Below, piece by piece: positions 14,708-50,247 of a stretch of 64,000 nt of DNA. Position 1 is the first letter of the stretch. Each line of letters starts with the position of its first letter. This stretch comes from Bacteroidota bacterium (lineage in GTDB: Bacteria; Bacteroidota; Bacteroidia; Bacteroidales; CAIWKO01). The DNA lies in the NCBI GenBank assembly GCA_037133915.1, contig JBAXND010000008.1, positions 16,564-80,563 of the forward strand. Direction: 5' to 3'. Under the pieces are notes generated by a model. The model was given only the letters and a program-made list of their open reading frames with translations, did not search any database and was not told where the DNA came from. The translations under genes and the position numbers were made by a program.

Positions 14708-17700
14708 CTACCTCACTAAAGTCACATTCCCCATTATCTTGTACTTCTTATTGAGGTTGTCGGTGTAGTAGGCAATCCATGTATATACCGCCGGAGGAGC
14801 AATGGTACTGCTGCCTTTCACGGAGCCGTCCCAGCCTTTGCCTATTTCGGTGCAGACATACACTTCCTGTCCCCAGCGATCAAAAATATGCATCTCAAAT
14901 TTGTTGGAGATAAGACCCTGGATACTTGGCATAAAGAACTCATTCAAACCATTACCATCAGGGGTAAAGGCCGTGGGCGCAAATATCAGTATCTGTGGGA
15001 AAATGGTAATCAGCCGTGATGTTGTATCGGAACAGCCATGGTTGCTCGATGCAACAAGAATGACATTAAATGTACCCGTATCACTAAAGGTATGCGATGG
15101 CAGGTGCTCCGTAGATTCATTGAGAATTCCTGAGGCAGGATCATCAAAATTCCAGTACCAGGTATTGGCACCCGACGATTGATTTACCATATTCACTTTT
15201 GGATCGTCCATAGTAGCTACCGATGGTGAGAAGTAGAAATCGGCCACCGGTTTTGTATAGACATTGATGGTTGAAACGCCTGTTTCTGTGCAGCCGTCGG
15301 TTGTCACTGCCGTGAGCGATGCGGTGTAGGTACCTTCGTTGGCATAGGTATGCATCGGGCTCAACTCAAAAGATGTATTGTTTGCCGAAAATAAATCACC
15401 AAAATTCCATGCCCATGATGAATCAGCAATGTTGACACCCGGAACATAGTCGAAGTTAACATCAAGTGGCTTGCAGCCTTCGCTTGGCACCGTGCTGAAT
15501 GTAAGTCCCGACAAGGGGAATACGTTAATAAGTACCGTTGCTGCACCTGTGCATCCCACGTTATCGGTACCGGTTACTGTATACACAGTCGTGGTGGTGG
15601 GTGATGCCACAACCGCCGGACCGGTGCTGTTTGATAATCCCGTTGCCGGCGTCCATACATACGTATCGGCACCTGCTGCGAGGCATGTTGTTGATTGTCC
15701 CGGACAAACATTCGCACTCGACGGTAAGGCCGTAACAGTGATTCCGTTTATTACATTAATATTTTGTGTCGCGCTGTTCACACAACTTGTAGCCGGATCA
15801 GTATACGTATAGGTAATGGTTGCAACACCAATCCCTGCTGTTGACGGGGTAAAGGTATTTGCGCTGACTCCCGCTCCCGAATACGTTCCGCCCGCAGGTG
15901 TCGCCGTATTCAGTAAAAATGGTGTTGAGTTCACGCAAACACTTGAGTAATTCGGGAAATTGATGGCAGGAAGATTATTTACAATAATATTGTAAGTTGA
16001 AGTACCAACGCATGAAGTAACCGGATCAGTCAAGGTATAGGTTATCGTATGTGTTCCTACGCCTGCCGTGGCAGGGTCAAACGTTCCAAGGGTGGCATCG
16101 GTAATGCCTGTTCCGCTCCATGTTCCACCGGCAGTGGCGGCACTAAGTGTCGTTGATGGGCTGTCAACACAATACGGTCCCGCAGCGGTTATTGTTGTAT
16201 TCGGGATGGGATTTACAACAACGGTATCTACTCCAATTCCCGGGTTTCCTGTGATACACGAAGGTGAGTTAGAGGTTACCGTACAGCTAATGATATTCGT
16301 TCCTACCGGAAGGTTATTGGCCGAATAAATATTCACACCTGTACCAACGTTTACACCATTCAGTTGCCACTGATAAGTGGGTGCTGTGCCGCCATTGGTA
16401 ACCGTGGCGCCAAATACTACTGTAGTTCCGAAGCATATCGGGCTAACAGGAAGTGATGTTACAACAACACCTACAGGCGCACTTGTATCAACCGTAACAA
16501 CAAAATTAACCGCAGGACCAACACAACCATTGGCAGTCGGTGTGATGGTATAGGTTACAGTACCCAGGGTAGTAAGACTGTTATTAAGGATATCATTGAT
16601 GTTACCGCTTCCGGAACCGCTAAAGCCGGTGATTGTGCCACTGGTATTTGAGCCGGTCCAGCTGAAGGTGGTACCTGTTACGTTTGATGTAAGGATAATA
16701 TTAGTCGACTGTCCGCTGCAAATAGTCAGCGTAAGCGGACTGTTTGTAACGGTGGGTGTCGGATTTACTGTAACTGTATAATTGCCCTGAGGTCCGGTAC
16801 AGCCGTTATACGCTGCATTAATAAGGTAAACAACAGTGCCTGGATTCGAAGTCGTATTCGTAAGAACATCAGTAATATTCCCCGTACCGCTGGGTGTAAA
16901 TCCGGTGATGTTTCCGCTTGGACTGGTCGCCGACCACGCGAATGTGGCACCCGAAATATTTGAAGTCAGAAGTATGTTCAGTGCATCACCTGAGCAGATA
17001 GTCTGAGACAAGGGATTATTGGTGATAACGGGAGTGGGGTTCACTGTGATGGTATAGGTAGCCACAGTACCTGTGCATCCGTTTGCTGTTGGGGTAATGG
17101 TAATGGTAACTGTTCCTGCTGTTGTATCAGAATTTATTAACGTCATTGCGGGAATAGTACTTGTACCGCTTGCTGCTGCACCTGAAATATTCGGTGAAGC
17201 CGATGACGTCCATGCGAAGGTTGTTCCCGGAACAGCAGAGGTAAGCGTAACCGAAGTGGTGGTCTGTCCGCTGCAAATAGTCTGACTCATGGGTGTATTG
17301 GTAACCGTAGGCAGAGGGCTAATGGTTACATTCATACATGTATTTGCACTGTTGCCACAAGCATTTCCGGCGTTTACGCAGATTGTTCCGGAAGTGGTTC
17401 CGAAGGTAACACTGATTGATGTGGTTCCTTGTCCGCTGTTTATTACGGCGCCTGTTGGAACCGTCCAGTTATAAGTGGTTGCTCCGGCTACTGCCGTAAT
17501 TGAATAAGTCTGTGTGGTATTAGGACATGCTGTCGGAGGACCGGTTATAGCTCCGGGAGCGGGTGGCGTCGGTGCCAGCGTCGTGGTAATACACGTAGGA
17601 GCACTCGTGCCGCAGGTATTCGATGCTGTTACGCAAATATTTCCTGCATTGGCGCCAAAAGTCACCGTAATGGAAGTTGTGCCTTGTCCTGATGTAACGG

Positions 17701-18601
17701 TTGCTCCGGCAGGTACGCTCCAGTTATAGGTTGTTGCGCCGGTAACAGGAGAAATAGAATAGGTAAAAGTTTGCCCCGGACAAACAACCGTGGGTCCGGT
17801 AATAGCTCCAGGCGCTGCCGGAGCTGGTGCAAGCGTAATAGTAATACAACTGGGTGCGCTGGTACCGCATGAGTTAGTTGCCGTGACGCAAATCTGACCT
17901 GCATTCGCACCAAAGGTTACCGTGATGGATGTGGAGCCTTGTCCTGATACTATGGTAGCACCTGCTGGAACAGTCCAGTTATAGGATGTGGCGCCTGTTA
18001 CAGCAGCAATAGAATAAGTAAACGTCTGACCCGGACATACGGCCGTGGTACCGGTAATTGCACCGGGTGTCGGTGGTCCGTTGATTGTGCCGGGCTGGTA
18101 ATTGAATGTCAAAACTACGCGTTGGGTGCAAATCTCAGTACCGAAGGGCTGAGGATTGGCGTATAATGTATTTGTCCCACTGTAATTGTAATTAGGAAGT
18201 CCGCAGGGAAACGTATTCGTGCAGGTTACTGCGTTGCAGCTTCCGCAGTTGCATGTGTGAGAACCTAAATTAACAGCAGTGCATATTGTTTGACCGTTAA
18301 TCTGTGTAGGTACGTTTTGCGCCGAACAGTCGGCTGCATAATAGGTAACCGTAACTCCTGTAATAACATTACCGGCAGGTACAGGATTGGTAAAGGTTTT
18401 GGTTTGCTGCGATGACTGGCAACAAGGACATCCGCTGGTGCCGATACACATATAGTCGGTACCGCACACACTGCAACAACCCCACGATTGTGCTCCGGAA
18501 TAATAAATAGTAACAGTCGCTGTCTGTGCATTAATACCGCTTGCGCCGGCACAAATCAATGCCACTATTATGAAAAAACGTACGATTTTTCTCTTCATCA
18601 C
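14708..18601 (-). CDS. Giant secreted multi-Ig/PKD-like repeat protein with T9SS type B (gliding-motility-associated) C-terminal domain
   Basis: 1297 aa with a signal peptide. The Cys-rich N-terminal ~170 aa is followed by 3 x ~86-aa tandem repeats (AITG..CPGQTFTYSI...YNW.VPAGA...CVTA.N.CGTSAP) and 3 x ~95-aa repeats (TN.P.SQTICSG...). Further PKD-like modules follow. The C-terminus FTPDGNGLNEFF...IFDRWGQEVY...WDG...GNVTLVR matches the type B CTD pattern. Confidence 0.85.
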   Translation of the reverse strand: MMKRKIVRFFIIVALICAGASGINAQTATVTIYYSGAQSWGCCSVCGTDYMCIGTSGCPCCQSSQQTKTFTNPVPAGNVITGVTVTYYAADCSAQNVPTQINGQTICTAVNLGSHTCNCGSCNAVTCTNTFPCGLPNYNYSGTNTLYANPQPFGTEICTQRVVLTFNYQPGTINGPPTPGAITGTTAVCPGQTFTYSIAAVTGATSYNWTVPAGATIVSGQGSTSITVTFGANAGQICVTATNSCGTSAPSCITITLAPAPAAPGAITGPTVVCPGQTFTYSISPVTGATTYNWSVPAGATVTSGQGTTSITVTFGANAGNICVTASNTCGTSAPTCITTTLAPTPPAPGAITGPPTACPNTTQTYSITAVAGATTYNWTVPTGAVINSGQGTTSISVTFGTTSGTICVNAGNACGNSANTCMNVTISPLPTVTNTPMSQTICSGQTTTSVTLTSAVPGTTFAWTSSASPNISGAAASGTSTIPAMTLINSDTTAGTVTITITPTANGCTGTVATYTITVNPTPVITNNPLSQTICSGDALNILLTSNISGATFAWSATSPSGNITGFTPSGTGNITDVLTNTTSNPGTVVYLINAAYNGCTGPQGNYTVTVNPTPTVTNSPLTLTICSGQSTNIILTSNVTGTTFSWTGSNTSGTITGFSGSGSGNINDILNNSLTTLGTVTYTITPTANGCVGPAVNFVVTVDTSAPVGVVVTSLPVSPICFGTTVVFGATVTNGGTAPTYQWQLNGVNVGTGVNIYSANNLPVGTNIISCTVTSNSPSCITGNPGIGVDTVVVNPIPNTTITAAGPYCVDSPSTTLSAATAGGTWSGTGITDATLGTFDPATAGVGTHTITYTLTDPVTSCVGTSTYNIIVNNLPAINFPNYSSVCVNSTPFLLNTATPAGGTYSGAGVSANTFTPSTAGIGVATITYTYTDPATSCVNSATQNINVINGITVTALPSSANVCPGQSTTCLAAGADTYVWTPATGLSNSTGPAVVASPTTTTVYTVTGTDNVGCTGAATVLINVFPLSGLTFSTVPSEGCKPLDVNFDYVPGVNIADSSWAWNFGDLFSANNTSFELSPMHTYANEGTYTASLTAVTTDGCTETGVSTINVYTKPVADFYFSPSVATMDDPKVNMVNQSSGANTWYWNFDDPASGILNESTEHLPSHTFSDTGTFNVILVASSNHGCSDTTSRLITIFPQILIFAPTAFTPDGNGLNEFFMPSIQGLISNKFEMHIFDRWGQEVYVCTEIGKGWDGSVKGSSTIAPPAVYTWIAYYTDNLNKKYKIMGNVTLVR

Positions 18602-19342: not shown

Positions 19343-21052
19343 ATGAAAAAATCAATACTCTTTTTTCTTGCACTCTTTGTAATGATTTTTACGATCAATG
19401 CTCAGGAATATAAATGGGTAATCAATCCTAAAGGAACCGATTCAGACTATTCCAACGATATTTTTGTGGACGGTTTAGGGAATAACTACACTACAGGATA
19501 TTTTCGGAGTGCCAGCCTCGATTGTGGAAATACTACCTTATACAATTCCGGCGGAATCGATTCGGCTGGTGGCCCCTGTTTCGACCTGTTCGTGATAAAA
19601 ATGGATTCGAACGGCGTAATCAACTGGGCGAAAAGTGCTGGACAATCGGGCAAATTCGAAAGCGGTACCGGAATTGCGGGCGACCATGCCGGTAATGTTT
19701 TTATTTCAGGTTGGTTTACGGGAACAAATTTTCAAATGGGCGGATCTACGCTTGTAAGCGCAGGTTTGTGGGAAGCTTTCTTGGCGAAATACGATAATGC
19801 GGGCAACGTTGCATGGGCACAAAAATTTGGCGGCCCTTCCGATGATGTCGGTACGTCTGTAGCGGTTGACGACAGTGGAAATGTATATTTTACCGGCTAT
19901 TTCTTTAGTCCAACAATTCAGTTCGGAACTATTACACTCACCAAATCAGGCGGCGGTATGTCATCTGACGCTTTTCTGGCTAAATTCGATAATAATGGAA
20001 ATGTAAAATGGGCAATAAAAATAGGTGGTAGCGGTAGCGATTTAGGCCGTCACCTTGCTGTCGATAAAGCTTACAACGTTTATCTTGCAGGGAATTTCGC
20101 CGGCTCCATGAATATTAGCGGTACACCGCTTTCCAGCAGCGGTAACACTGATATTTTTCTTGCCAAATATACTTCCGGAGGCGCTTTTCTCTGGGCAAAA
20201 AAAGCCGGTGGCAGCGCAATGGACCATGTAAATGGTATCGCCGTGTATGATACAACGGGTTGTGCCATTACCGGCGAAGCCTACAGCAACCCGATTACCT
20301 TTGGGACAATTCCGGTGGCGCATTCAGGCATGACCAATACTTTCGACAGCTACGTGGCGCGTTATAACCAGAATGGAACCGTATTGTGGGCCAAAGGTGC
20401 CGGTGGTGCCGACGATGACATTGGTCGTGATGTAACCTTTGATACAAAAGGGAATCTTTATGCATGCGGCGATTACGCAAGTGCTACCTTTGGTTTTGGT
20501 GGCACAACAATTACGAACAGCAATGCAAACAGTACCTTCACAGATTTCTATGTGGCGAAATTCGATTCCGCAGGAACACAGCAGTGGTTAAAAACGGCCA
20601 ATGGCTTTTATTTCGAATATGCCTATGCGATTGGTGCCGACGCAAAAGATAATCTTTACTTCACTGGCCCCTGGGAAGGAAATACACTTTCATTCAGCCC
20701 GCAAGAAATTGCATCCACCGGAAATACCGATTTCTATATTGCAAAAATTGGCTATCCTTCCGATACTACAGATACTTCGGGAAGCGTAATTAATGAATAT
20801 CAAAAAACCGAAAGCCTCGTTTTTCCAAATCCAAACAACGGAAACTTCACCATCAGTAATGTTGATTACACCCATGAATTGCTTATCACGGTGTTTGATG
20901 TTACCGGTAGAATAGTTTATGAAAGGCTTATTCCTGCCGGGATTTTGCCTAAGGTTGATCTTTCACTCGGCGATATGCAGCAGGGACTTTATATGCTGAG
21001 AGTTGTTTCAAACGGTAATGAATTTTTCTCTAAATTTGTGGTAAGGAGATAA
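19343..21052 (+). CDS. SBBP (beta-propeller) repeat protein with T9SS type A sorting domain
   Basis: Signal peptide, then about 9 repeats of the D..GN.Y.TGYF / FLAKYD..GN..WA pattern typical of SBBP repeats. The C-terminus LVFPNPNNGNFTIS...GLYMLRVVS...KFVVRR is a type A CTD. Confidence 0.8.
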   Translation: MKKSILFFLALFVMIFTINAQEYKWVINPKGTDSDYSNDIFVDGLGNNYTTGYFRSASLDCGNTTLYNSGGIDSAGGPCFDLFVIKMDSNGVINWAKSAGQSGKFESGTGIAGDHAGNVFISGWFTGTNFQMGGSTLVSAGLWEAFLAKYDNAGNVAWAQKFGGPSDDVGTSVAVDDSGNVYFTGYFFSPTIQFGTITLTKSGGGMSSDAFLAKFDNNGNVKWAIKIGGSGSDLGRHLAVDKAYNVYLAGNFAGSMNISGTPLSSSGNTDIFLAKYTSGGAFLWAKKAGGSAMDHVNGIAVYDTTGCAITGEAYSNPITFGTIPVAHSGMTNTFDSYVARYNQNGTVLWAKGAGGADDDIGRDVTFDTKGNLYACGDYASATFGFGGTTITNSNANSTFTDFYVAKFDSAGTQQWLKTANGFYFEYAYAIGADAKDNLYFTGPWEGNTLSFSPQEIASTGNTDFYIAKIGYPSDTTDTSGSVINEYQKTESLVFPNPNNGNFTISNVDYTHELLITVFDVTGRIVYERLIPAGILPKVDLSLGDMQQGLYMLRVVSNGNEFFSKFVVRR

Positions 21053-24222: not shown

Positions 24223-25200
24223 TTAAATTGTGATAATTGTCCCAATGTTTTTCTCTATAGCTTTGTCATAAACTAATTTTGCCGTGGCTGCATCCTGTAT
24301 GGCAAGTCCGTTCGATTTAAAAAGTGTAATCATTGAATTATTGGTTCGTCCTGCTTTTTTCGACGTAATGATTTCGCCAATCTCTGCATAAAAATGCTCT
24401 GCCTTTATGACACCTTCTTCAATAGGGATGAGCAGATCGCCGGCCTCACTAAAACATGCTTCTTTAGAATCTCCGACAAAAAGAGATCTCTGAATAATGG
24501 CAGAATCCAGTTCTCTTGCGTTTGGTGTGTGGCTGCCAATCCCGTTTATATGTGTTCCTTCTTTTACCTGGTTTCCGTCAAACAAAGGATTGGCAGATGA
24601 CGTTGCAGTGCATATTATATCCGCTTCAAGCAATTGCTGAGGTTTCGTGGCTATTATAATTTCGATGCCGAGCGTCTCACTCATTTCCGTAGCAAACCTC
24701 CGGGCCGCTTCATCCGAAATATCATAAACAATAGCACTGGCTATATCTCTGACTTCTGTCATTGCCCAAAGCTGCATGCGTGCCTGAACTCCCGAACCGA
24801 AAATTCCAACTACCTGACGTTTATCGTTTCGTGCCAAATATTGCGTTGCTATTCCGCTTGCTGCACCTGTTCGTAAGGCTGTCAAATATCCTCCGTCCAT
24901 GATACATGTTACATCACCTGTTTTGGGATCCTGCAACAGCACTTTCCCTATCGTGGTTGGCATATTGTATTGTGCAGGATTGTTTTTATATACAGTCACA
25001 ACTTTGCATGCAAGCGCCCCCATCACTGGCAAATATGCCGGCATATAAAGCGCAAGACCATCGGGTGGCTTTATGGCCGTTCGGAGCGGGAGCACAGCCG
25101 TTCCGTCAGCCAGTTCTGTAAATGCTTTTTCCATGACCCGGATACAATCCTTCATGGTGAGAACCGACATTACATCGGTACGATTCAGTATAAGTGTCAT
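24223..25200 (-). CDS. Ornithine cyclodeaminase / mu-crystallin family protein
   Basis: 325 aa. The N-terminus MTLILNRTDVMSVLTMKDCIRVMEKAF, then TALRTGAASG and the Rossmann segment VGIFGSGVQAR, are typical of the OCD/mu-crystallin family. Confidence 0.9.
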   Translation of the reverse strand: MTLILNRTDVMSVLTMKDCIRVMEKAFTELADGTAVLPLRTAIKPPDGLALYMPAYLPVMGALACKVVTVYKNNPAQYNMPTTIGKVLLQDPKTGDVTCIMDGGYLTALRTGAASGIATQYLARNDKRQVVGIFGSGVQARMQLWAMTEVRDIASAIVYDISDEAARRFATEMSETLGIEIIIATKPQQLLEADIICTATSSANPLFDGNQVKEGTHINGIGSHTPNARELDSAIIQRSLFVGDSKEACFSEAGDLLIPIEEGVIKAEHFYAEIGEIITSKKAGRTNNSMITLFKSNGLAIQDAATAKLVYDKAIEKNIGTIITI

Positions 25201-25512
25201 CAGTGGAAGATTTGGTTATTGCAATACTAAACAAATTTTTCTATGCATGCAAGGATTGTTTTTGTTCATCTCCGGACTGTCATTCTGAAGCGTTTATAAA
25301 ACCCGGTTTTTACAATAAACCGTTAATGAAATAAAAATTATTGAAACGTTTTTGCATCAATTTTCACATCCCGTTTTTTCAGTTGAAAAATTGTGAAATC
25401 TTTACAGAAATCACGTTTATTATTTATATAGCTTTGTGTTTTCGGAATATAAAATGTGCCTATCGACAAAGGCTGAAATTATCAGGATAAACCATAGATT
25501 AATACCGTTAAA

Positions 25513-25890
25513 ATGAGAAAGAATATTAGCATATCAGGGGCGCCTAAACCTCTTGGTCCGTACAGTCAGGCCGTAATGATAAAAGGAATGTGTTTTATTT
25601 CGGGTCAGGTTGCCATCAATCCGCATACGGGCGAATTTGTAGGCGCAACCGCTGCAGAGCAGGCAGAGCAAGCAATGGAGAACGTCAAGGCTTTGTTATT
25701 CGAAGCAGGACTCGATTTTTCAAATGTGGTGAAAACGTCGATTTTCCTGATGGACATGAACGACTTTGATGCTGTTAACGCCGTTTATCAAGGCTATTTT
25801 CAGGAAAACTATCCTGCCCGCGAAACAGTGCAGGTAAGTCGGTTGCCGAAGAATGCGCTTGTTGAAATATCGGCTATTGCTGTTGAGTAG
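25513..25890 (+). CDS. RidA (YjgF/TdcF) family reactive-intermediate deaminase
   Basis: 125 aa with APKPLGPYSQAV, ISGQVAI and PARETVQVSRLPKNALVEI, the characteristic RidA pattern. Confidence 0.9.
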   Translation: MRKNISISGAPKPLGPYSQAVMIKGMCFISGQVAINPHTGEFVGATAAEQAEQAMENVKALLFEAGLDFSNVVKTSIFLMDMNDFDAVNAVYQGYFQENYPARETVQVSRLPKNALVEISAIAVE

Positions 25891-25955
25891 CATTTTTTTT
25901 GTGTGAATGCTGTGTTTTTATTAAGTATTTATTTAGTAGTTCCGGGTTGTAGAAT

Positions 25956-28124
25956 ATGAAGAAATATTTTTCAGTTTTGATAATGACGTTGCTGTTGGTC
26001 AGGATTGTTCCTGCAAGAGCCGACGAAGGAATGTGGTTACCCATTTTATTGGGGGAAGGCACTGAAGCGGAAATGCAACGGCTGGGCATGAAAATATCTG
26101 CTGAAGATATTTACAGCCTCAACAAACCATGTATTAAAGATGCTGTCGTACTTTTCGGTGGCGGATGTACTGCTGAAATTGTTTCGGATCAAGGGCTCAT
26201 TCTTACCAACCATCACTGCGGTAGAAGTGCGATACAAGCACATTCAACACTGGATTTGAATTATCTGGCGAATGGTTTTTGGGCTGCCAATAATGATGAA
26301 GAACTTGCCAATCCCGGTTTGAAAGTAAGCATTCTTCTAAGAATGGAGGATGTAACGAATAAAGTGTTGACCGGTATTAATAATAAAGCTGACGAAACAC
26401 AACGCCAGGCGCAAATTAAAGCCAATTGCGAAAGAGTGGCGAAAGAAGCTTCCGAAAAGGGCAAATACACAAGCAGTGTTGAAACTTTCTATTATGGCAA
26501 TCAATACATTCTCGTTATTTATCAGGTGTTTCGCGATGTTCGCCTTGTGGGTGCACCTCCTGTAAGCATCGGGAATTTTGGTGGAGATACCGATAACTGG
26601 ATGTGGCCGCGGCATACCGGCGATTTTTCGGTATTTCGCATTTATGCCGATAAAGACAATCAGCCTGCGAATTACGACAAATCGAATGTGCCCTATAAAC
26701 CGGCTTTTCATCTCTCAATTTCAACAAAAGGGATTAAAGAAAATGATTTTACCTTTATTGTAGGTTTCCCGGGACAAACGCAGGAATACCTTGCCTCTGA
26801 TGCAGTGGACTTTATTGCCAATACTGAAAATCCTGCCCTGATAAGAATACGCGAAAAGCGACTCGACATCATGGATAAATACATGAAAACCGACAAGCTT
26901 ACCCGCTTGAAATATTCAGCCAAGTACTACAGTATTGGTAATTTCTGGAAAAAAATGATTGGTGAAGCCAAGGGTATTAAACGCCTGAATACTATTGCTC
27001 AGAAGAAAGAACTGGAAAAAAGATTTACCGCATGGGTAAATGCCGACAAAGACCGGAAGCTAAAGTACGGCAGTGTGCTTGCATCCTTCACGGAAACGTA
27101 TAAAGAGCTGCTGCCATATGAGCTGGCGGCTGATTATTTTGTGGATGCGGGCCTTGGAATCGAAATTGTGCGCTTTGCCCGTAATTTCTATAAACTGGTC
27201 GACCTGAGCAACGGTAAAAAAGCAAACGATGCGGACATTCAGGAATGCCTTGATCAATTGAAAGCCACCTCCGCCGGGTTCTTTAAAAATTATGATACAC
27301 GCATTGATCAAGAAGTGATGGCGGCATTGCTGCAGATGTACTATAAAGACCTGGATCCGGCCTATGTGCCCGATGTAGTACTAAATAACGGAACGGCCAC
27401 AAATGGTGATTTTACTGCCTATACAGCTGAGTGCTTTAAAAAATCCTTTATGGTTTCAGAAGAAAAAGTAAATGAATTCCTTATGAATTATAAGCCGGGC
27501 AAGGCTTCCGTTATAAAGAAAGATCCGATTTTTATTCTTTCTTCGGGGCTGTATTCTTTTTATGCTGAAAATATCTATGCCAAAGTATCGATGATGGAAG
27601 AGGAGGTGAACGGTTATTATCGCAAATACATGCGCGGCCTTATGGAAATGGATACCCTCAAGCATTTTTACCCCGATGCCAATCTTACGATGCGAGTTAC
27701 CTACGGAAAAATTGGTGGCTATCATCCTCGTGATGCGGTTGACTATTCCTGGTTTACAACACTTCCCGGAATAATGAAAAAGGAAGATACGGCCGTTTAT
27801 GATTATCTGGTGGATCCGAAACTGAAAACACTCTGCGCCAATAAAGACTATGGGCAATGGGCCGATGCCGATGGAAATATGCATGTTTGTTTTATTGCCT
27901 CTAATCATACCACCGGCGGTAATTCCGGAAGTCCTGTGCTGAATGCCGAAGGTCAACTTATCGGTATCAATTTCGACAGGGTGTGGGAAGGAACGATGAG
28001 CGACATTGCTTTTGATCCGGAACGATGCCGCAACATTGCCGTTGACATTCGCTATTGCCTGTTTATCATTGATAAATTTGCCGGTTCCAAAAGGCTGATT
28101 GATGAAATGACCCTCGTTAAGTAG
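25956..28124 (+). CDS. S46 family dipeptidyl-peptidase (DPP7/DPP11-like)
   Basis: A signal peptide is followed by the hallmark mature N-terminus ADEGMWLP. The catalytic His region is LTNHHCG and the catalytic Ser motif is GGNSGSPVLN. Confidence 0.9.
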   Translation: MKKYFSVLIMTLLLVRIVPARADEGMWLPILLGEGTEAEMQRLGMKISAEDIYSLNKPCIKDAVVLFGGGCTAEIVSDQGLILTNHHCGRSAIQAHSTLDLNYLANGFWAANNDEELANPGLKVSILLRMEDVTNKVLTGINNKADETQRQAQIKANCERVAKEASEKGKYTSSVETFYYGNQYILVIYQVFRDVRLVGAPPVSIGNFGGDTDNWMWPRHTGDFSVFRIYADKDNQPANYDKSNVPYKPAFHLSISTKGIKENDFTFIVGFPGQTQEYLASDAVDFIANTENPALIRIREKRLDIMDKYMKTDKLTRLKYSAKYYSIGNFWKKMIGEAKGIKRLNTIAQKKELEKRFTAWVNADKDRKLKYGSVLASFTETYKELLPYELAADYFVDAGLGIEIVRFARNFYKLVDLSNGKKANDADIQECLDQLKATSAGFFKNYDTRIDQEVMAALLQMYYKDLDPAYVPDVVLNNGTATNGDFTAYTAECFKKSFMVSEEKVNEFLMNYKPGKASVIKKDPIFILSSGLYSFYAENIYAKVSMMEEEVNGYYRKYMRGLMEMDTLKHFYPDANLTMRVTYGKIGGYHPRDAVDYSWFTTLPGIMKKEDTAVYDYLVDPKLKTLCANKDYGQWADADGNMHVCFIASNHTTGGNSGSPVLNAEGQLIGINFDRVWEGTMSDIAFDPERCRNIAVDIRYCLFIIDKFAGSKRLIDEMTLVK

Positions 28125-28513
28125 ACTTGAGTCTTCGATTCTTTACAACAGCATATTCATAGCCGTTTCATGCCTGTTTTATAACGGTTATTGCATTAAT
28201 TTACGAATTACACCTAATTTGAATTAAGTATATTACTGACGTGTTCACATACGTGTAACTATCAATAATATATGCCTTATTTTAGAAATGTTATAAATAT
28301 AACAATGCGTTTTGGTCTGTTTAGACATTTTGTACTTTAGCAGCCATTATATAATGTATAAATCAGCCAGCCGGTTTTTTTTAATTTTCGAAAACCGCTT
28401 ACGTATTCAGGGAGTCTTAAATATTAAGAGTTAAACTTAAAAATGGTTTCTACCTACGTAATAAATGATTTATTTTTACCAACCCCTAACTTCTAACCCC
28501 CAACCCCCTAATT

Positions 28514-29032
28514 ATGAGAATAGAAAGAATCTACCACCAAAAAGACAAGAAGGTTCAGGACCAGGTTGACCTTGGGATGATAGACGCGCTCATCAGTAAA
28601 TACAAAGGAAAAAAGGGGAACATGATTCCTCTGTTGCAAGGTGTTCAGGAGACCTATGGTTATATTCCGGAAGTGGCATTTTATAAACTTGCCGAGGAAG
28701 CCGGTCTGAAGTTGAACGACATGTATGGTGTAGCCACCTTCTATGCACAGTTCAGGCTGAATCCTGTTGGCAAGCATATTATTAAAGTATGCCACGGAAC
28801 TGCTTGTCACGTGCAGAATGCCAACTCAATTACCGATGCTTTGCAGGAATCTTTGGGTATTAAAGATGGCGAAACTACCGAAGACCGGATCTTTACACTT
28901 GAATCCGTTGCCTGTCTCGGATGCTGTTCACTGGCACCGGTTATGATGCTGGGAGATGAAACTTATGGTAAACTTACCGGCAGCGAAGCCGTTAGTATTG
29001 TAAAAAATATAAAAATCCGCGAAAGCAATTAA
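28514..29032 (+). CDS. NuoE/HydC-like thioredoxin-fold [2Fe-2S] subunit
   Basis: 172 aa with the NuoE cluster pattern VCHGTACH ... CLGCCSLAPVMM. Confidence 0.85.
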   Translation: MRIERIYHQKDKKVQDQVDLGMIDALISKYKGKKGNMIPLLQGVQETYGYIPEVAFYKLAEEAGLKLNDMYGVATFYAQFRLNPVGKHIIKVCHGTACHVQNANSITDALQESLGIKDGETTEDRIFTLESVACLGCCSLAPVMMLGDETYGKLTGSEAVSIVKNIKIRESN

Positions 29033-29091
29033 AGAACCAATGTGATGATGCGGATAAAATTTCGCATTACGCAGATAACAACAGAATTATT

Positions 29092-30870
29092 ATGGCAAAC
29101 ACAAAAGTTATTGTTGGGCTTGGAAGTTGCGGAATTGCCGCCGGTGCAAATAAAACATACCTCAAGATTGAAGCACTGAAGCACACCGACAATCTGAATT
29201 TTGAATTAAAGAAAACGAGCTGTATCGGTATGTGCTTTCGCGAACCTTTGGTGGAAGTTATTGACGACAGTGGTTCGTATATCTATGGGAATATTGACGA
29301 AGACCGAGCCATCGAAATCATTGAAAAGCATATAAAAAATGGTGAAGTTGTTAAAGAATTTGTTGTAAAGACTGATCTCTTCGAAACGGCAGACAATCAT
29401 TTTTTTCGTGACCAGGTGCGTATCGCACTGCGTAATTGCGGCATGATAGACCCCGAGAAAATTGAAGAATATGAAAGCCGTGATGGTTATAAATCCATTG
29501 CGCGCATTGCTTCTGAGAAGCTTGAACGCGCTGCCGTGATACAAACAATGATAGACAGCGGGTTGCGAGGACGCGGCGGCGGCGGCTTTCCTACGGGCAT
29601 GAAATGGCGGTTTGCCAACAATTACAAATCACCTGAGAAATATGTAATCTGTAATGCCGATGAGGGCGACCCCGGCGCCTTCATGGATCGTTCGCTGCTG
29701 GAAGGCGACCCACACTCGGTGATAGAAGGGATGATTATTGCAGCCTATGCCATTGAAGCAACCGGAGGCGTTATCTATTGCCGTGCCGAGTATCCGCTTG
29801 CCATTAAACGACTGAACATTGCCCTTGATCAGGCTCGTGCCAAGGGTTATCTTGGTAAAAACATTTTTGGAATAGCAGATTTTAATTTTGATATCTATAT
29901 AAAGGAAGGTGCCGGTGCGTTTGTATGCGGTGAAGAAACAGCTCTTATTGCATCCGTCGAAGGGAAGCGCGGTATGCCCCGCAAGCGCCCGCCATTCCCG
30001 GCCGAATCGGGATTATGGAGAAAACCCACAAATATTAATAATGTAGAAACCCTTGCCAATGTTCCTTACATCATACTCAATGGTGCAGGAGCATTTAATA
30101 AATACGGAACAGAAAAAAGTAAAGGCACCAAAGTATTTGCCCTTGCCGGAAAAATCAACCATTCGGGTCTTGTTGAAGTACCAATGGGCGTTACCATACG
30201 CGATATTATTTTTAAACTGGGCGGTGGCATTCCTAAAAACAAAAAATTTAAAGCGGTGCAGCTTGGCGGCCCTTCAGGTGGCTGTATTCCCGAATACCTT
30301 GCCGATACCATAGTTGACTATGATTCGGTTACCGCTACCGGTGCTATTATGGGCTCGGGCGGTATGGTGGTCATGGACGAAACTACCTGTATGGTTGATG
30401 TGGCGCGCTTTTTCCTGAATTTTACTCAGGAAGAATCATGCGGAAAGTGTACTTTTTGCAGGATAGGCACAAAACGAATGCTCGAAATTCTTACGCGCAT
30501 CACCGAGGGTAAAGGACAGGAAGAAGACCTTGCACGTCTCGAAGAACTAGCGTATCAGATTAAAGATAATTCATTGTGCGGTCTGGGGCAAACAGCACCC
30601 AACCCTGTTCTCACGACCATGAAATATTTCCGCAATGAATATGAAGCTCACATCCGCGATAAAAAATGTCCGGCTAAAGTTTGCAAGCAGCTAATCACTT
30701 ATACCGTTGATGCCGATAAATGTACCGGCTGTACGGTATGTGCAAAAAAATGTCCGGTACAGGCCATCAGCGGCGAACGCAAAAAAGTTCATCTCATTGA
30801 TCAGGTAATCTGCATCAAATGCGGCGACTGCTTCAACAGATGCAAGTTTGATGCAATCATACTTTCATAA
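29092..30870 (+). CDS. NuoF/HydB-like NAD(P)H-binding flavoprotein subunit with extra Fe-S domains
   Basis: 592 aa. An N-terminal small thioredoxin-like Fe-S domain (GLGSCGIAAG...CIGMC) precedes the FMN site GLRGRGGGGFPTGMKW and the NADH site GAGAFVCGEETALI. The N3 cluster is ESCGKCTFCRIG. The C-terminus carries a 2 x [4Fe-4S] ferredoxin (CTGCTVCAKKCP, CIKCGDCFNRC). This is the HydB/Bfu-B layout. Confidence 0.9.
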   Translation: MANTKVIVGLGSCGIAAGANKTYLKIEALKHTDNLNFELKKTSCIGMCFREPLVEVIDDSGSYIYGNIDEDRAIEIIEKHIKNGEVVKEFVVKTDLFETADNHFFRDQVRIALRNCGMIDPEKIEEYESRDGYKSIARIASEKLERAAVIQTMIDSGLRGRGGGGFPTGMKWRFANNYKSPEKYVICNADEGDPGAFMDRSLLEGDPHSVIEGMIIAAYAIEATGGVIYCRAEYPLAIKRLNIALDQARAKGYLGKNIFGIADFNFDIYIKEGAGAFVCGEETALIASVEGKRGMPRKRPPFPAESGLWRKPTNINNVETLANVPYIILNGAGAFNKYGTEKSKGTKVFALAGKINHSGLVEVPMGVTIRDIIFKLGGGIPKNKKFKAVQLGGPSGGCIPEYLADTIVDYDSVTATGAIMGSGGMVVMDETTCMVDVARFFLNFTQEESCGKCTFCRIGTKRMLEILTRITEGKGQEEDLARLEELAYQIKDNSLCGLGQTAPNPVLTTMKYFRNEYEAHIRDKKCPAKVCKQLITYTVDADKCTGCTVCAKKCPVQAISGERKKVHLIDQVICIKCGDCFNRCKFDAIILS

Positions 30871-30898
30871 TTTGTCTAATAAATAATCATAGAATACG

Positions 30899-33800
30899 AT
30901 GAGCAACAATCTGAATATAATCCTGAACGGAAAAAGTGTTATTGGAAATAAAGGTGAAACCATTCTTGAACTTGCTACCCGGCAAGGTATTGAGATTCCG
31001 ACACTGTGCCATGACGCCAGGCTTGAGCCTTATACGTCATGCTATCTCTGCGTTGTAGAAGTTGAAGGCATGCGCGGGCTCCAACCAGCCTGCTCTACAA
31101 AGGTGAACGAAGGGATGAAAATTGATACACACAACACTAAGATATTTAAAGCGCGCAAGGCGGCTTTGGACTTGCTGCTGAGCAATCACTATGCCGATTG
31201 TCTGGGTCCGTGTAAACAAACCTGCCCTGCCGGCGTTGATGTTCAGGGTTACATCAGCCTGATTGATAAAGGCATGTACAGCGAAGCCATTGCACTCATT
31301 AAAGAAACCAATCCGCTTCCCGCTATTTGCGGTCGTGTTTGTGTTCGTCCCTGTGAAGTTGCCTGCAGGCGCAACCTCCTTGACGAAGGTGCTGCTGTTG
31401 GTATTGATTATTTGAAACGCTTTGCGGCAGATTATGATCTGGCATCCGAGCATAAATATATACCGGAAATTAAACCGGCAACGGGTAAAAAAGTTGCGAT
31501 TATTGGTGCGGGTCCCGGCGGACTTTCAGCTGCTTTTTTCCTGCAGAAAGAAGGCCATCAGGCTGATATTTTCGAAGCCAGTCCGGCGGCAGGAGGCTGG
31601 CTGCGATATGGAATTCCTGAATATCGTCTTCCCAATAATCTGCTTCAGCAGGAAGTTGACAATATCACTGAAATAGGTGTAAACATTCTTTATAACCAGA
31701 AGCTTGGCGAAAACCTTAGTTACAAAGCGCTGAAGTATAAATATGACGCCATTATTCTGGCAATAGGTTCACAAAAAGGAACATCCATTGGATGCGATGG
31801 CGACGATGCCGAGAACGTTTTTTCCGGTATTGATTTTCTGAAGCAAATGGAAATCAGCGGCAAGAAATACGACTTTTCGGGAAAAACCGTGGGTGTGATT
31901 GGTGGTGGCAATACTGCGATGGACTGCTGTCGCTCCGCCATGCGCTGTGGCGCGAAAAAAGTTTTTGTAGTGTATCGCCGTACCGAAAAAGAAATGCCGG
32001 CAAATCCCATTGAAATTCATGAATCGAAACTGGAGGGCATTGATTATCATTTTCTGACAGCACCCGTTCGTGTAAACAAAGATGATAAAGGCAGAATAAA
32101 ATCGCTTACCTGCATTAAAATGGATCTTGGCGAACCCGATGCATCAGGTCGCAGAAGACCGGTACCTGTGGCCGGTTCGGAGTTTGACCTCGAAATGGAT
32201 TACGCTCTTGCTGCCATCGGACAGAAAACAGACATCAACTTCCTGAACGATGTAAACAGTAATACTGAAACAGGCGAGCTGAAAATAAATAAGTGGGGCG
32301 ATATTGATGCCAGCGCTTCAACACTTCAAACGGGCGTGAACAGAATTTTTGCCTGCGGTGATGGAGTTACAGGTCCTGCCACACTTATTCAGGCTGTCGG
32401 TCAGGCAAAAATTGCAGCACTCAGCTGTCATCAGTTTCTGATGGGTATGCCTTTGATTCCTGAAAAACAGGGTTTCATTTCAAAAAGGGAAAACTTTAAA
32501 CCTCAGGTAAAAGAAGATTATCTCGGTAAATATTCGACTCAGGAACGACACGAAATGCCTACTCTTGACCCCAACAGCCGCAAGAATTTTAAAGAAGTTG
32601 AGTTGGGTTATGAAGGCGAGAAAGAAGCCCGGATGGAAGCCCAACGATGTCTTGAATGCGGCTGCTCAGAATATTATGTGTGCGATTTAAAACGCTATGC
32701 TACAGAATACGAAGCTGACCAGAAAAAATTCAACGGCGATTTCAGAGAATATGAAGTGGATTTCCGTCATCCGTATATAGAAATTGATAATAATAAATGT
32801 ATACTGTGTTCGCGTTGTATCCGCATTTGCAGTGAAGTTGTGGGTGCCAATGCGCTGGGTCTGGTAGAGCGCGGTTTCAAAACATTTGTTGCTCCAAGTC
32901 TTGGGCAGTCGCTTACCGATACCCAATGCGAGTCGTGCGGTATGTGTGTTACAACCTGTCCGACCGGAGCCATCACTGAAAATGTGACGTTCAAACCGGG
33001 ACCGGTTACAGCTGAAACATTTGATACTATTTGCAATTATTGCTCCGTTGGCTGCGAAATAACGGTTCACCACCGCAAGCAGCGTGTTATTAAAGTTACA
33101 GGTCGCAAGGGCAGAGTAAACAAAGACGGTAATATCTGCCGTTTCCCACGGTTTGGGTACGATTATCTGAATGATAACCAACGTATCACCCGTCCAATGA
33201 TTAAGGTTAACGGCAAGTTTGAACCTGCAGGTTTTGCGGAAGCCTATGATGCCATTACCAAAAAAATCAAGAGTGTTAAGCCTGATCAGAATGCTTTTTT
33301 TGCCGGTGCGCGTCTCACAAACGAAGAAATGTATCTGGTGCAAAAGTTGGCCCGTTTTGGTGCGAAAACCAATAATGTAGGCAGTTTCCACTATCTGGGC
33401 AGGGGCGATGAATATTTGAACAGTTCCAGATTTAATGTTCCCTTTGATCAGCTGAGTGGTGCCGGAAAGATTTGGCTGTTAGGGTCGGAGATTAATACAG
33501 ACAACGCCGTTATCGGTTTTATGGTAAATAATCTTCATAATAAACAACACGTTCCGCTTGAAAATATCACCGTAAGGGAAAACAGCAGCGTAAAGCATAA
33601 AGTGGATAAGAACACCGTAATTAAGGATTATTACTTCTTTGTGAAAGCCGTAAATCATTATCTGCTATCCAACGGACTAGAGAACGCATTGTTTATTAAG
33701 GATAACTGCAGCGGATTCGATACCTATAAAGCAGCCTTGCTGGCCGAGAATTTCAACGAGCTGGTGGAAAAAGGTTCCTGCTGTGAAGAATGTGTAGTGG

Positions 33801-34597
33801 ATTTTGCCACAGATTTCAATAAGCAGATGAATGCAATCCTTATTTATTCCGAAAAGGAGGTGCCATCAAATGCAGTTGCAGAACTCAGAAACCTGTCACT
33901 CATTACCGGCAAGCTCGGTAAAACATCGATGGGTATGCTTGCACTGAAAGAGAAAAACAATGCACAGGGGCTTTCGGATATGGGTATTCATCCTCAATTT
34001 GGCGTTGGTGGCGTATCTGTTGACGATAGCACTCTGCTCAAGAAAATGAAGGACATATGGGGTACGTCGGAATTGCCGGAGAAATTTGTTGGCGTGCAAA
34101 CCGGCTTGCTTGAAAAAGGTGACGTGAAAAACTTGCTTATTTTTGGTGAAGATCCTATAGGAACAGCCATAGATAAAGACTTGGTAAATAATTGGTTCAA
34201 AAAGGCGGATTTTATAGTGGTACAGGATTGTTTTATGACAGAGACAGCTGCTGCCGCCGATATTATTTTACCGGCCTCGTTCCCGATTGAAACGGGCGGA
34301 GGTTTTACAAATACACAACAATATCTGCAGCGTTTTGAGCGTGCACCGAAATTTGATGCCGTTCTCGAGCGTCAATCGTATGAGCAATTGCTCGATTTGC
34401 TTGGTAAATTCGGCACCCATAAAATTTCCGATACTACCGACGTGATGATGGAAGCTATTCAGTTACTTCCGCAGCCCAATGGTCATACTCATGCTTTTGT
34501 AATTTCTGCCGCTGGCTGTGGGCCCAGATTATTCGACAGTGGGGCTGATGCCATCACTGCAAAGTTTGAGCGTGAATTTAGTGAGCGTTTTGCTTAG
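30899..34597 (+). CDS. Four-module oxidoreductase: NuoG-type [2Fe-2S] + GltD-like NADPH/FAD domain + 2 x [4Fe-4S] + molybdopterin-oxidoreductase-like domain
   Basis: 1232 aa. Module 1: C37-x10-C48-x2-C51-x13-C65, the NuoG-type 2Fe-2S pattern. Module 2: GltD N-terminal Fe-S region (DCLGPCKQTCPAGVD...ICGRVCVRPCEVAC) and two Rossmann folds (VAIIGAGPGGLSAA, VGVIGGGNTAMDC). Module 3: CILCSRCIRIC and CESCGMCVTTCPTGAI. Module 4: MopB-type CNYCSVGCEI, then ~500 aa of molybdopterin-like domain. Confidence 0.8.
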   Translation: MSNNLNIILNGKSVIGNKGETILELATRQGIEIPTLCHDARLEPYTSCYLCVVEVEGMRGLQPACSTKVNEGMKIDTHNTKIFKARKAALDLLLSNHYADCLGPCKQTCPAGVDVQGYISLIDKGMYSEAIALIKETNPLPAICGRVCVRPCEVACRRNLLDEGAAVGIDYLKRFAADYDLASEHKYIPEIKPATGKKVAIIGAGPGGLSAAFFLQKEGHQADIFEASPAAGGWLRYGIPEYRLPNNLLQQEVDNITEIGVNILYNQKLGENLSYKALKYKYDAIILAIGSQKGTSIGCDGDDAENVFSGIDFLKQMEISGKKYDFSGKTVGVIGGGNTAMDCCRSAMRCGAKKVFVVYRRTEKEMPANPIEIHESKLEGIDYHFLTAPVRVNKDDKGRIKSLTCIKMDLGEPDASGRRRPVPVAGSEFDLEMDYALAAIGQKTDINFLNDVNSNTETGELKINKWGDIDASASTLQTGVNRIFACGDGVTGPATLIQAVGQAKIAALSCHQFLMGMPLIPEKQGFISKRENFKPQVKEDYLGKYSTQERHEMPTLDPNSRKNFKEVELGYEGEKEARMEAQRCLECGCSEYYVCDLKRYATEYEADQKKFNGDFREYEVDFRHPYIEIDNNKCILCSRCIRICSEVVGANALGLVERGFKTFVAPSLGQSLTDTQCESCGMCVTTCPTGAITENVTFKPGPVTAETFDTICNYCSVGCEITVHHRKQRVIKVTGRKGRVNKDGNICRFPRFGYDYLNDNQRITRPMIKVNGKFEPAGFAEAYDAITKKIKSVKPDQNAFFAGARLTNEEMYLVQKLARFGAKTNNVGSFHYLGRGDEYLNSSRFNVPFDQLSGAGKIWLLGSEINTDNAVIGFMVNNLHNKQHVPLENITVRENSSVKHKVDKNTVIKDYYFFVKAVNHYLLSNGLENALFIKDNCSGFDTYKAALLAENFNELVEKGSCCEECVVDFATDFNKQMNAILIYSEKEVPSNAVAELRNLSLITGKLGKTSMGMLALKEKNNAQGLSDMGIHPQFGVGGVSVDDSTLLKKMKDIWGTSELPEKFVGVQTGLLEKGDVKNLLIFGEDPIGTAIDKDLVNNWFKKADFIVVQDCFMTETAAAADIILPASFPIETGGGFTNTQQYLQRFERAPKFDAVLERQSYEQLLDLLGKFGTHKISDTTDVMMEAIQLLPQPNGHTHAFVISAAGCGPRLFDSGADAITAKFEREFSERFA

Positions 34598-34669
34598 TGG
34601 AAGTGAAATTATAGTCATCGTAAACGGGATGTGTCAAAAACTTTCCGGCGGATGGTAAGCGATTTTGAA

Positions 34670-34677
34670 TATTTTTG
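34670..34677 (+). promoter_or_regulatory. Candidate -7 promoter box for the ferritin-like gene
   Basis: TATTTTTG (TAnnTTTG) lies 17 nt upstream of the ATG at 34695. It lies 5 nt downstream of the track's TTG start at 34665, which argues for the ATG start. Confidence 0.4.
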
Positions 34678-34694
34678 TACTAAATAACTGTAAC

Positions 34695-35150
34695 ATGAAG
34701 GAATTTAAATCAACCGAGGATATTCTTAATTTTGCCATTGAGGCTGAACAGGACGCGTTTGAATTTTACTCGAAGTTAGCGGGTGGCGCAACGTCTGAGC
34801 AAATGAAAAAGGTGTTCGAACAATTTGCTCAGGAGGAAAGCGGGCATAAAGCCAAGCTTCTGAAAATCCTGGAAACTGGTATGGTTGAAATGACTCATGA
34901 AAAAGTTGCTGACCTAAAGATTGCCGACTACACTGTAAGTGTTGAAGTCAACGAAAATATGACCTATCAGGATGCACTTATTGTTGCGATGAAAAAAGAA
35001 AAGGCAGCTTTTCGCTTATACCTGGCGCTATCAGAAAGAGCACCCAGTGCTTCACTTAAAGACCTCTTTATGATGCTTGCCACTGAAGAATCAAAGCACA
35101 AGCTGCGCTTCGAAATTGAATACGACGAATTCGTACTTCGGGAAAACTAG
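34695..35150 (+). CDS. Rubrerythrin/ferritin-like di-iron four-helix-bundle protein (no rubredoxin domain)
   Basis: Two E...ExxH half-sites are present: EAEQDAFEFY + EESGHKAKL, and MKKEKAAFRLY + EESKHKLRF. Confidence 0.75.
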   Translation: MKEFKSTEDILNFAIEAEQDAFEFYSKLAGGATSEQMKKVFEQFAQEESGHKAKLLKILETGMVEMTHEKVADLKIADYTVSVEVNENMTYQDALIVAMKKEKAAFRLYLALSERAPSASLKDLFMMLATEESKHKLRFEIEYDEFVLREN

Positions 35151-35167
35151 AAATAATATTTTCAGAT

Positions 35168-35197
35168 AAAGCAACGCTGAGCTGTCAGCGTTGCTTT
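35168..35197. terminator. Bidirectional hairpin terminator between convergent genes
   Basis: AAAGCAACGCTGA-gctg-TCAGCGTTGCTTT forms a perfect 13-bp stem, flanked by A/T runs, abutting the stop of the minus-strand zinc-ribbon gene. Confidence 0.8.
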
Positions 35198-50173: not shown

Positions 50174-50247
50174 GGCCCCGTAGTTCAGCTGAATAGAACG
50201 TCAGATTCCGGTTCTGAAAGTCGGGGGTTTGAATCCCTCCGGGGTCA
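50174..50247 (+). tRNA. tRNA-Arg (anticodon CCG)
   Basis: The 74-nt cloverleaf was folded by hand. Acceptor GGCCCCG/CGGGGTC (one G-U); D arm GTTC-AGCTGAATA-GAAC; anticodon arm TCAGA-TTCCGGT-TCTGA; variable AAGTC; T arm GGGGG-TTTGAAT-CCCTC; discriminator A. CCA is not encoded. Confidence 0.9.

Follow-up and report, generated by a model that had tools for sequence, protein, structure and literature searches.

A predicted Stn/NfnABC-type electron-bifurcating transhydrogenase encoded by a conserved three-gene operon of a Bacteroidales bacterium

The DNA studied here, called the window below, is a stretch of 64,000 nucleotides (nt) from a Bacteroidota bacterium of the order Bacteroidales (GenBank assembly GCA_037133915.1, contig JBAXND010000008.1, positions 16,564 to 80,563 of the forward strand). 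It carries three co-directional genes, named here stnA, stnB and stnC (genes 1, 2 and 3), whose products resemble the subunits of the electron-bifurcating transhydrogenases StnABC and NfnABC (Table 1). The open reading frames (ORFs) are separated by 59 nt (29033-29091) and 28 nt (30871-30898), exactly as given in a preliminary description of this DNA made from the letters alone. We fetched 80 related Bacteroidales loci and scored gene order wherever the contig reached far enough; the A-B-C order was kept throughout, the median gaps between the genes being about 40 nt. This conservation, together with the Pfam E-values, rules out a chance arrangement.

Table 1. Coordinates of the features in the window (aa, amino acids; Trx, thioredoxin; FMN and FAD, flavin mononucleotide and flavin adenine dinucleotide)
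Feature	Position	Strand	Description
stnA / nfnC (BfuC), gene 1	28514-29032	+	172 aa, NuoE/HydC-like, C-terminal Trx-like [2Fe-2S] (C1) domain
stnB / nfnB (BfuB), gene 2	29092-30870	+	592 aa, HydB-like subunit
stnB sites			N-terminal Trx-like domain (B5), FMN/NAD(H), B1 [4Fe-4S], B2 Cys/His, C-terminal ferredoxin domain (B3 + B4)
stnC / nfnA (BfuA), gene 3	30899-34597	+	1232 aa, large subunit
stnC NuoG/HydA-type [2Fe-2S] domain, aa 1-100	30899-31198	+	Fer2_4
stnC NfnL/GltD-like insert, aa ~101-565	31199-32593	+	Two [4Fe-4S], FAD and NADPH sites; Fer4_20, Pyr_redox_2
stnC four more [4Fe-4S] motifs, aa 584-758	32648-33172	+	Fer4_Nqo3, Molybdop_Fe4S4
stnC FdhF/NuoG-like (molybdopterin-oxidoreductase-like) domain, aa 762-1232 and stop	33182-34597	+	Predicted to be cofactor-less
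Diiron protein gene	34695-35150	+	151 aa, cysteine-free diiron four-helix bundle (rubrerythrin/ferritin-like, COG1633-type); Pfam Rubrerythrin, E 8.6e-17
Terminator-like hairpin	35168-35197	+	13-bp stem, T-rich tail; 3' end of gene cluster
Ornithine cyclodeaminase family gene	24223-25200	-	Upstream of operon
RidA gene	25513-25890	+	Upstream of operon
Dpp7/S46 dipeptidyl-peptidase gene	25956-28124	+	Upstream of operon
PKD-repeat protein gene	14708-18601	-	1297 aa, CHU_C domain, type IX secretion cargo
Por_Secre_tail protein gene	19343-21052	+	569 aa, type IX secretion cargo
tRNA gene	50174-50247	+	Rfam

The product of stnA matched Pfam PF01257 (2Fe-2S_thioredx) with an E-value of 2e-50, and its best PDB matches were 9bov_C (185 bits), 9n5u_C and 8oh5_A (169 bits each). 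The two cluster motifs, CHGTAC and ACLGCCSLAP, are identical to those of all three chains, so that the NuoE-like partner proposed in the preliminary description is confirmed by its family and by the C1 motifs of the solved NfnC and StnA proteins. For StnB, Pfam recognised a weak N-terminal 2Fe-2S_thioredx domain (aa 21-79), Complex1_51K (155-325), SLBB, NADH_4Fe-4S (436-520) and a 4Fe-4S dicluster (537-588), which agrees with the full HydB layout attributed to this subunit. Aligned over 587 residues with StnB of Sporomusa ovata, it showed 63% identity, and 23 of the 25 StnB cysteines were matched, the two exceptions (A217 and I590) lying outside the cluster motifs. The FMN/NAD(H) site reads GRGGGGFPTG; the B1 residues Cys450, 453, 456 and 496 align to StnB cysteines, and B3 and B4 are given by two CX2CX2CX3C motifs (Cys544/547/550/554 and Cys574/577/580/584). 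The B2 segment, EAHIRDKKCPAKxCK, is identical to that of StnB and of the 584-aa NfnB chain (9bov_B); the 9n5u_B chain differs from it at two positions and keeps the histidine and both cysteines. The three cysteines of the N-terminal Trx-like B5 site (Cys13/44/48) are conserved as well. In the solved enzymes, B2 consists of three cysteines and one histidine and holds Zn, and B5 is a site of three cysteines. The FdsB and Nqo1 chains stopped aligning at residue ~517-528 of StnB, before the Cys/His site and the C-terminal clusters.

The large subunit StnC combines domains in the order that the preliminary description had read from the sequence, namely a [2Fe-2S] domain, a GltD module, [4Fe-4S] clusters and a MopB-like part, each of which was recovered by Pfam or NCBIfam models: Fer2_4 (aa 4-79), Fer4_20 (103-182), Pyr_redox_2 (197-503), Fer4_Nqo3 (625-693), Molybdop_Fe4S4 (707-758) and Molybdopterin (762-1149). 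Conservation was followed in a clade alignment of 121 sequences. In all of them the ligands of the [2Fe-2S] cluster (Cys37/48/51/65) are invariant, and so are the motifs of the GltD module, H-x3-C101-x3-C105-x3-C109-P and C144/148/152/156, as well as the NADP(H)-type GGGNTAMD (GxGxxA), the YRRT motif and R236. The meaning of the GxGxxA motif and of a conserved arginine near the FAD (R239 in S. ovata StnC) has been described (PMC7483475). In the PDB the NfnL/GltD-like module matched the NfnB/NfnL chains 4ylf_B (1e-94) and 5jca_L (1e-82). The four further clusters correspond to a CxxCxCx5C motif, two ferredoxin-type CxxCxxCxxxC motifs and a Molybdop_Fe4S4 cluster, and their cysteines (584/587/589/595, 634/637/640/644, 677/680/683/687 and 712/715/719/747) are also invariant. 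The total of six [4Fe-4S] and one [2Fe-2S] motifs equals the published cofactor content of StnC/NfnA, and the HxxxCxxxCxxxCP and CxxCxCx(4-5)C motifs of the large subunit had been noted by Kremp et al. (PMC7483475). With the 1178-aa NfnA chain, StnC shares 45% identity over residues 7-799 in an alignment that is continuous over 7-1031. A candidate extra metal site, formed by CCxxC (aa 961-965) and Cys937, was rejected, the cysteines of CCxxC being present in just 10-26% of the clade.

The family was assigned by ranking bit scores against named PDB chains. The best relatives of all three proteins were the chains of 8oh5 (StnABC) and of 9bov and 9n5u (NfnABC), the three best complexes scoring 786, 739 and 607 bits for the large subunit, 854, 842 and 831 bits for StnB and 185, 169 and 169 bits for StnA. 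The large chain of 8oh5 has 1172 aa, as does S. ovata StnC according to PMC10482914. From the 1178-aa chain and the residue Y1178 mentioned in PMC11829005, we infer that 9BOV/9BP5 are NfnABC of Caldicellulosiruptor saccharolyticus, and the chain names NfnA/B/C suggest that 9N5U is the archaeal enzyme of PMC12018979. For the NuoF-like subunit StnB, the scores were 831-854 bits with StnB/NfnB, 608-758 bits with the bifurcating NiFe- and FeFe-HydB, 403 bits with the non-bifurcating FdsB of Cupriavidus necator and 381 bits with Nqo1 of Thermus thermophilus. Thus, by PDB bit scores, this subunit is not nearer to non-bifurcating formate dehydrogenases or complex I, the placement that would have spoken against the preliminary description. 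Its assignment to a Bfu/Stn-type enzyme acting on NADH, NADPH and ferredoxin is upheld at the sequence level by the best matches of all subunits, and the likeness it saw between StnC and the Stn large subunit is upheld by the StnC/NfnA chains. We consider it very probable, on this evidence, that the three genes encode a heterotrimeric electron-bifurcating transhydrogenase of the Stn/NfnABC (Nfn-Bfu) type.

The mechanism proposed here was transferred from the solved homologues, and the activity, stoichiometry and physiological direction are accordingly given as predictions. In the large subunit, NADPH would give up its electrons to the FAD of the NfnL/GltD-like module, a flavin expected to be non-bifurcating. 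NADP(H) at this module would thus be the partner reaction that the preliminary description had called unclear. Electrons would then travel singly from one [4Fe-4S] cluster to the next until they reach the BfuBC core, where they would be split at the composite B1-FMN-C1 'flavobicluster', made of the FMN, the adjacent [4Fe-4S] cluster B1 and the mobile [2Fe-2S] cluster C1 of the small subunit. The high-potential electrons would reduce NAD+ at the FMN, and C1 would carry the low-potential electrons to the C-terminal [4Fe-4S] clusters B3/B4 of StnB and on to ferredoxin (Fd). The overall reaction would be 2 NADPH + NAD+ + Fd(ox) <-> 2 NADP+ + NADH + Fd(red), and it would be reversible. It may serve either to supply NADPH from NADH and reduced ferredoxin or to dispose of NADPH coming from amino-acid fermentation.

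A rubrerythrin-like gene had been reported after stnC, and Pfam confirmed it (Table 1). Its ORF spans 34665-35150, with ATG 34695 as the likely true start. The diiron ligands E18, E48-x2-H51, E102 and E132-x2-H135 are invariant, and the AF2 model consists of four helices (pLDDT 86.5). The closest folds were the uncharacterised Pyrococcus furiosus protein 2fzf, the rubrerythrin 1ryt and TM1526, and the protein belongs to the uncharacterised 2fzf/TM1526-like group. It was not retained as a full rubrerythrin: the diiron bundle is present but there is no cysteine and no rubredoxin Fe(Cys)4 domain. Directly downstream of stnC and on the same strand, the gene was found in 43 of the 68 related loci reaching far enough, usually at 2-30 nt. 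The cultured Tenuifilum thalassicum (CP041345) has the same four-gene cluster, with a 17-nt overlap between stnC and the diiron gene. It was absent beside stn in 21 of the 68 loci, and in one complete genome it lies far from stn, adjoining a flavodiiron protein, which led us to reject the diiron protein as an obligate subunit. The window copy of the gene lies 97 nt from stnC and is preceded by its own TAnnTTTG motif. No terminator-like site comparable to the hairpin that follows it was found on the + strand between stnC and the diiron gene, and the two genes may be co-transcribed. A perfect 12/12 sigma-70 consensus (TTGACA-18-TATAAT) occurs between these genes at 34608-34637 on the - strand, antisense into stnC; it is probably a chance match, since Bacteroidota promoters use a different consensus.

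Several points weigh against the transhydrogenase assignment. Its function is transferred from enzymes that are 45-63% identical. The metal site at B2 and B5 may be either Zn or [2Fe-2S]. The FdhF-like domain is better conserved here than in the solved enzymes, and the frequent diiron gene hints at an extra or alternative electron sink that is absent from the characterised systems.

The last of these points leads to the alternative that survives best, in which the complex is mainly a reductase of another acceptor driven by NAD(P)H or ferredoxin, either of peroxide or O2 through the diiron protein or of sulfur or O2 as in NsoABC, with transhydrogenation as a secondary activity. Besides the recurrent position of the diiron gene and its overlap with stnC in T. 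thalassicum, this is favoured by the NCBIfam family NF009413, made of fusions of NfnS-like, GltD and ferritin domains, whose ferritin part is matched by the diiron protein and which shows that the pairing of GltD and ferritin modules recurs. It is also favoured by the Rub-Bfu enzymes predicted by Schut et al. (PMC9304861) and by the homologue NsoABC of Thermococcus litoralis, first described as an NADPH sulfur/oxygen oxidoreductase (PMC10482914, PMC7483475). However, every feature for the bifurcation to NAD+ and ferredoxin is intact, the diiron gene is not obligate and stands apart from stnC in the window, and the predicted Rub-Bfu lacks BfuA, unlike the window cluster. We therefore regard this alternative as improbable. 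Slightly less so, yet still unlikely, is a joint role of the Nfn-Bfu complex and the diiron protein, for instance in passing electrons derived from NAD(P)H or ferredoxin to peroxide or O2, perhaps by way of the off-pathway cluster branch and the unusually well-preserved FdhF-like domain. If it were true, the locus would represent a variant with four components that either uses a fourth substrate or has its own means of protection built in.

The C-terminal part of StnC raises another alternative, namely that the large subunit works as an NADP-linked bifurcating formate dehydrogenase of the Fdh-Bfu type or as some other molybdopterin enzyme. The domain matched Pfam Molybdopterin (PF00384) with an E-value of 5e-25, and residues 760-1232 (33176-34594) scored 134-142 bits with genuine molybdenum (Mo) or tungsten formate dehydrogenases, about twice the 69-74 bits obtained with the corresponding domains of the solved StnC/NfnA. 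Public annotation of the clade is often 'formate dehydrogenase major subunit'. However, the Mo-ligand cysteine of the formate dehydrogenase YjgC (RYCQ) aligns to Gly834, and this Cys/Sec position is N, G, E or D in the 121 clade sequences and never Cys; the equivalent of the catalytic Arg333 of FdhF is Lys1017, invariant in the clade. The formate dehydrogenase chains aligned to StnC solely through their first ~470-510 residues, from which we conclude that the beta-barrel domain IV, kept by Nqo3 and FdsA, is missing; in the same sense, no match to Molydop_binding (PF01568) was found in the Pfam scan of StnC. In addition, no formate activity was found in S. ovata Stn by Kremp et al. (PMC7483475), and in the Fdh/NuoG-like domain of C. 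saccharolyticus NfnA the pterin site is incomplete and shows no density for a pterin (PMC11829005). An active formate dehydrogenase was rejected on the evidence of the catalytic positions and of the absent domain IV, and this alternative has next to no probability.

As a component of the predicted transhydrogenase, the FdhF-like domain would be a pterin-less evolutionary remnant with an off-pathway branch of clusters and a role in assembly or oligomerisation. In S. ovata, residues 683-1172 of StnC are FdhF-like, catalytically inactive and mediate tetramer formation, and their deletion loses the complex (PMC10482914). The bacterial enzymes assemble through the large subunit into tetramers of heterotrimers. 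The preliminary description had taken the ~500-aa molybdopterin-like domain as foreign to Stn; this does not hold, the domain being standard in StnC (1172 aa) and NfnA (1178 aa), and the reading as an extra domain was dropped. The dead domain of this clade has eroded less than its counterparts in the solved enzymes, and invariant residues, among them LKEKNNxQGxxDMG, surround the former active site. It could inform the evolution of Nfn-Bfu from an Fdh-type ancestor.

A non-bifurcating NuoEFG-type NADH dehydrogenase module (of complex I, of an NAD-dependent formate dehydrogenase or of a hydrogenase diaphorase) is likewise highly improbable, although NCBIfam NuoE, NuoF and NuoG models matched significantly (all below their cut-offs except one NuoE model), because StnB carries, as is typical of Bfu, a Trx-like domain at its N-terminus and a two-cluster ferredoxin domain at its C-terminus and scores about twice as high with Bfu members as with FdsB and Nqo1, no genes for nuo membrane subunits were present among the neighbouring genes examined, and the large subunit has no H-cluster domain.

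Upstream of the operon lies an AT-rich spacer of 389 nt, which contains no exact Bacteroidetes-type TAnnTTTG motif; a sigma-70 scan gave weak matches only. The spacer ends in an unusually C-rich tract, CCAACCCCTAACTTCTAACCCCCAACCCCCTAATT (28476-28513), abutting the start codon of stnA. Antisense ORFs within the three genes had no Pfam match. At the gathering thresholds of Rfam nothing was found near the operon, and one tRNA was the sole match in the window. Domain scans identified the neighbouring genes as peptidase, RidA, RNase Y, NUDIX and similar genes. The upstream genes (24223-28124) point to peptide and amino-acid catabolism and may hint at the source or sink of NADPH. Among the products encoded in the window are TamB, a Dpp7/S46 peptidase and proteins with type IX secretion sorting domains, and the type IX cargo proteins support a Bacteroidota origin. 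In a sub-clade of the related loci, genes for a glutamate dehydrogenase and for two large PPDK_N-domain proteins (phosphoenolpyruvate-utilising-like) of ~1290 and ~990 aa border the stn cluster (L080 1578-5468 and 12429-15428, L043 127-1485, L081 1-1704, and similarly in about 30 loci). In the window, neither PPDK_N proteins nor a glutamate dehydrogenase adjoin the operon.

The nearest relatives of StnC are at most 70% identical to it, and about 8000 homologues were found at an E-value of 1e-20. The best 120 matches and all 80 loci come almost entirely from environmental Bacteroidales/Bacteroidota metagenome-assembled genomes. Schut et al. (PMC9304861) had earlier reported that Nfn-associated BfuB, their clade 53, occurs in Bacteroidetes too, and our literature search found no paper linking Stn/Nfn-Bfu to Bacteroidales specifically. 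The chief value of the analysis is a correction of annotation: public records name the clade proteins 'FAD-dependent oxidoreductase' or 'formate dehydrogenase major subunit', but they would be Stn/NfnABC transhydrogenases. In anaerobes this family connects the pools of NADH, NADPH and ferredoxin, and the number of homologues together with their distribution in metagenome-assembled genomes suggests a common redox-balancing device in these fermenters. Two leads go beyond what is known of the family, the recurrent diiron partner gene, a modest one, and the less-eroded FdhF-like domain.

Among known systems, FdsABG and the predicted Fdh-Bfu have a NuoEFG-like architecture in common with the operon; unlike them, it has no Mo-ligand Cys/Sec, catalytic Arg or domain IV, and it possesses the GltD insert and the Bfu-specific ferredoxin domain. 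NfnAB/NfnSL catalyses the same overall reaction with a homologous NfnL/GltD-like module, but in Stn/NfnABC the bifurcating site is the FMN-cluster site of the BC core and not the FAD of the GltD module. No domains of the FNR-like NfnS-type subunit were found in the three genes or in the scanned neighbours. Some related loci carry separate genes upstream of stnABC (L009 1812-2639 and L054 490-2334), one NfnS-like with DHODB_Fe-S_bind and NAD_binding_1 domains (275 aa) and one stand-alone GltD/NfnL-like (614 aa), and such genomes may hold both transhydrogenase types side by side. The BfuB and BfuC subunits of the Bfu-family enzymes HydABC and NiFe-HydABCSL are homologous to those of the operon and share their cofactor motifs (608-758 bits), whereas the large subunit described here has neither an H-cluster nor a NiFe partner, and NADP(H) instead of H2 would be the third substrate. 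The predicted Rub-Bfu (Schut et al. 2022, PMC9304861) likewise has a rubrerythrin-family gene beside Bfu genes, but it consists of BfuBC only, with rubrerythrin replacing BfuA, whereas the operon has a complete Nfn-type BfuA and the diiron protein is without a rubredoxin domain.

Within the Nfn-Bfu group, Nfn-BfuABC of Thermococcus sibiricus (PMC12018979) and NsoABC of T. litoralis share the BC core (842 bits for the B subunit) and the NfnL-like insertion. The archaeal large subunit has 963 aa and is about 270 aa shorter, with a partial Fdh-like domain, one cluster fewer and a monomeric state; StnC, unlike it, has the full bacterial-type Fdh-like domain. The best overall match of the large (786 bits) and small subunits is NfnABC of C. 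saccharolyticus (PMC11829005), whose NfnA has the same layout of N-terminal domain, NfnL-like and Fdh-NuoG-like parts without a pterin, and whose B1-FMN-C1 flavobicluster residues are conserved here; its host is a thermophilic Firmicute, and its B5 site holds Zn where that of S. ovata holds [2Fe-2S]. StnABC of S. ovata (PDB 8OH5/8OH9; Kremp 2020, PMC7483475; Kumar 2023, PMC10482914) matches the operon in its three subunits and in the order of their genes, and its StnC has the same order of modules and the same count of six [4Fe-4S] and one [2Fe-2S]. It differs in its host, an acetogenic Negativicutes species as against a Bacteroidales bacterium with no Wood-Ljungdahl context, and in the genes downstream of stn, which are pabAB in S. 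ovata (PMC7483475) and the diiron gene here. The StnC described here is also 60 aa longer, and its FdhF-like part, which scores ~140 bits with real formate dehydrogenases, is weakly similar to that of S. ovata StnC (74 bits). With these differences, the operon encodes an ordinary representative of the Stn/NfnABC family, a kind of enzyme that has been characterised in structure and biochemistry.

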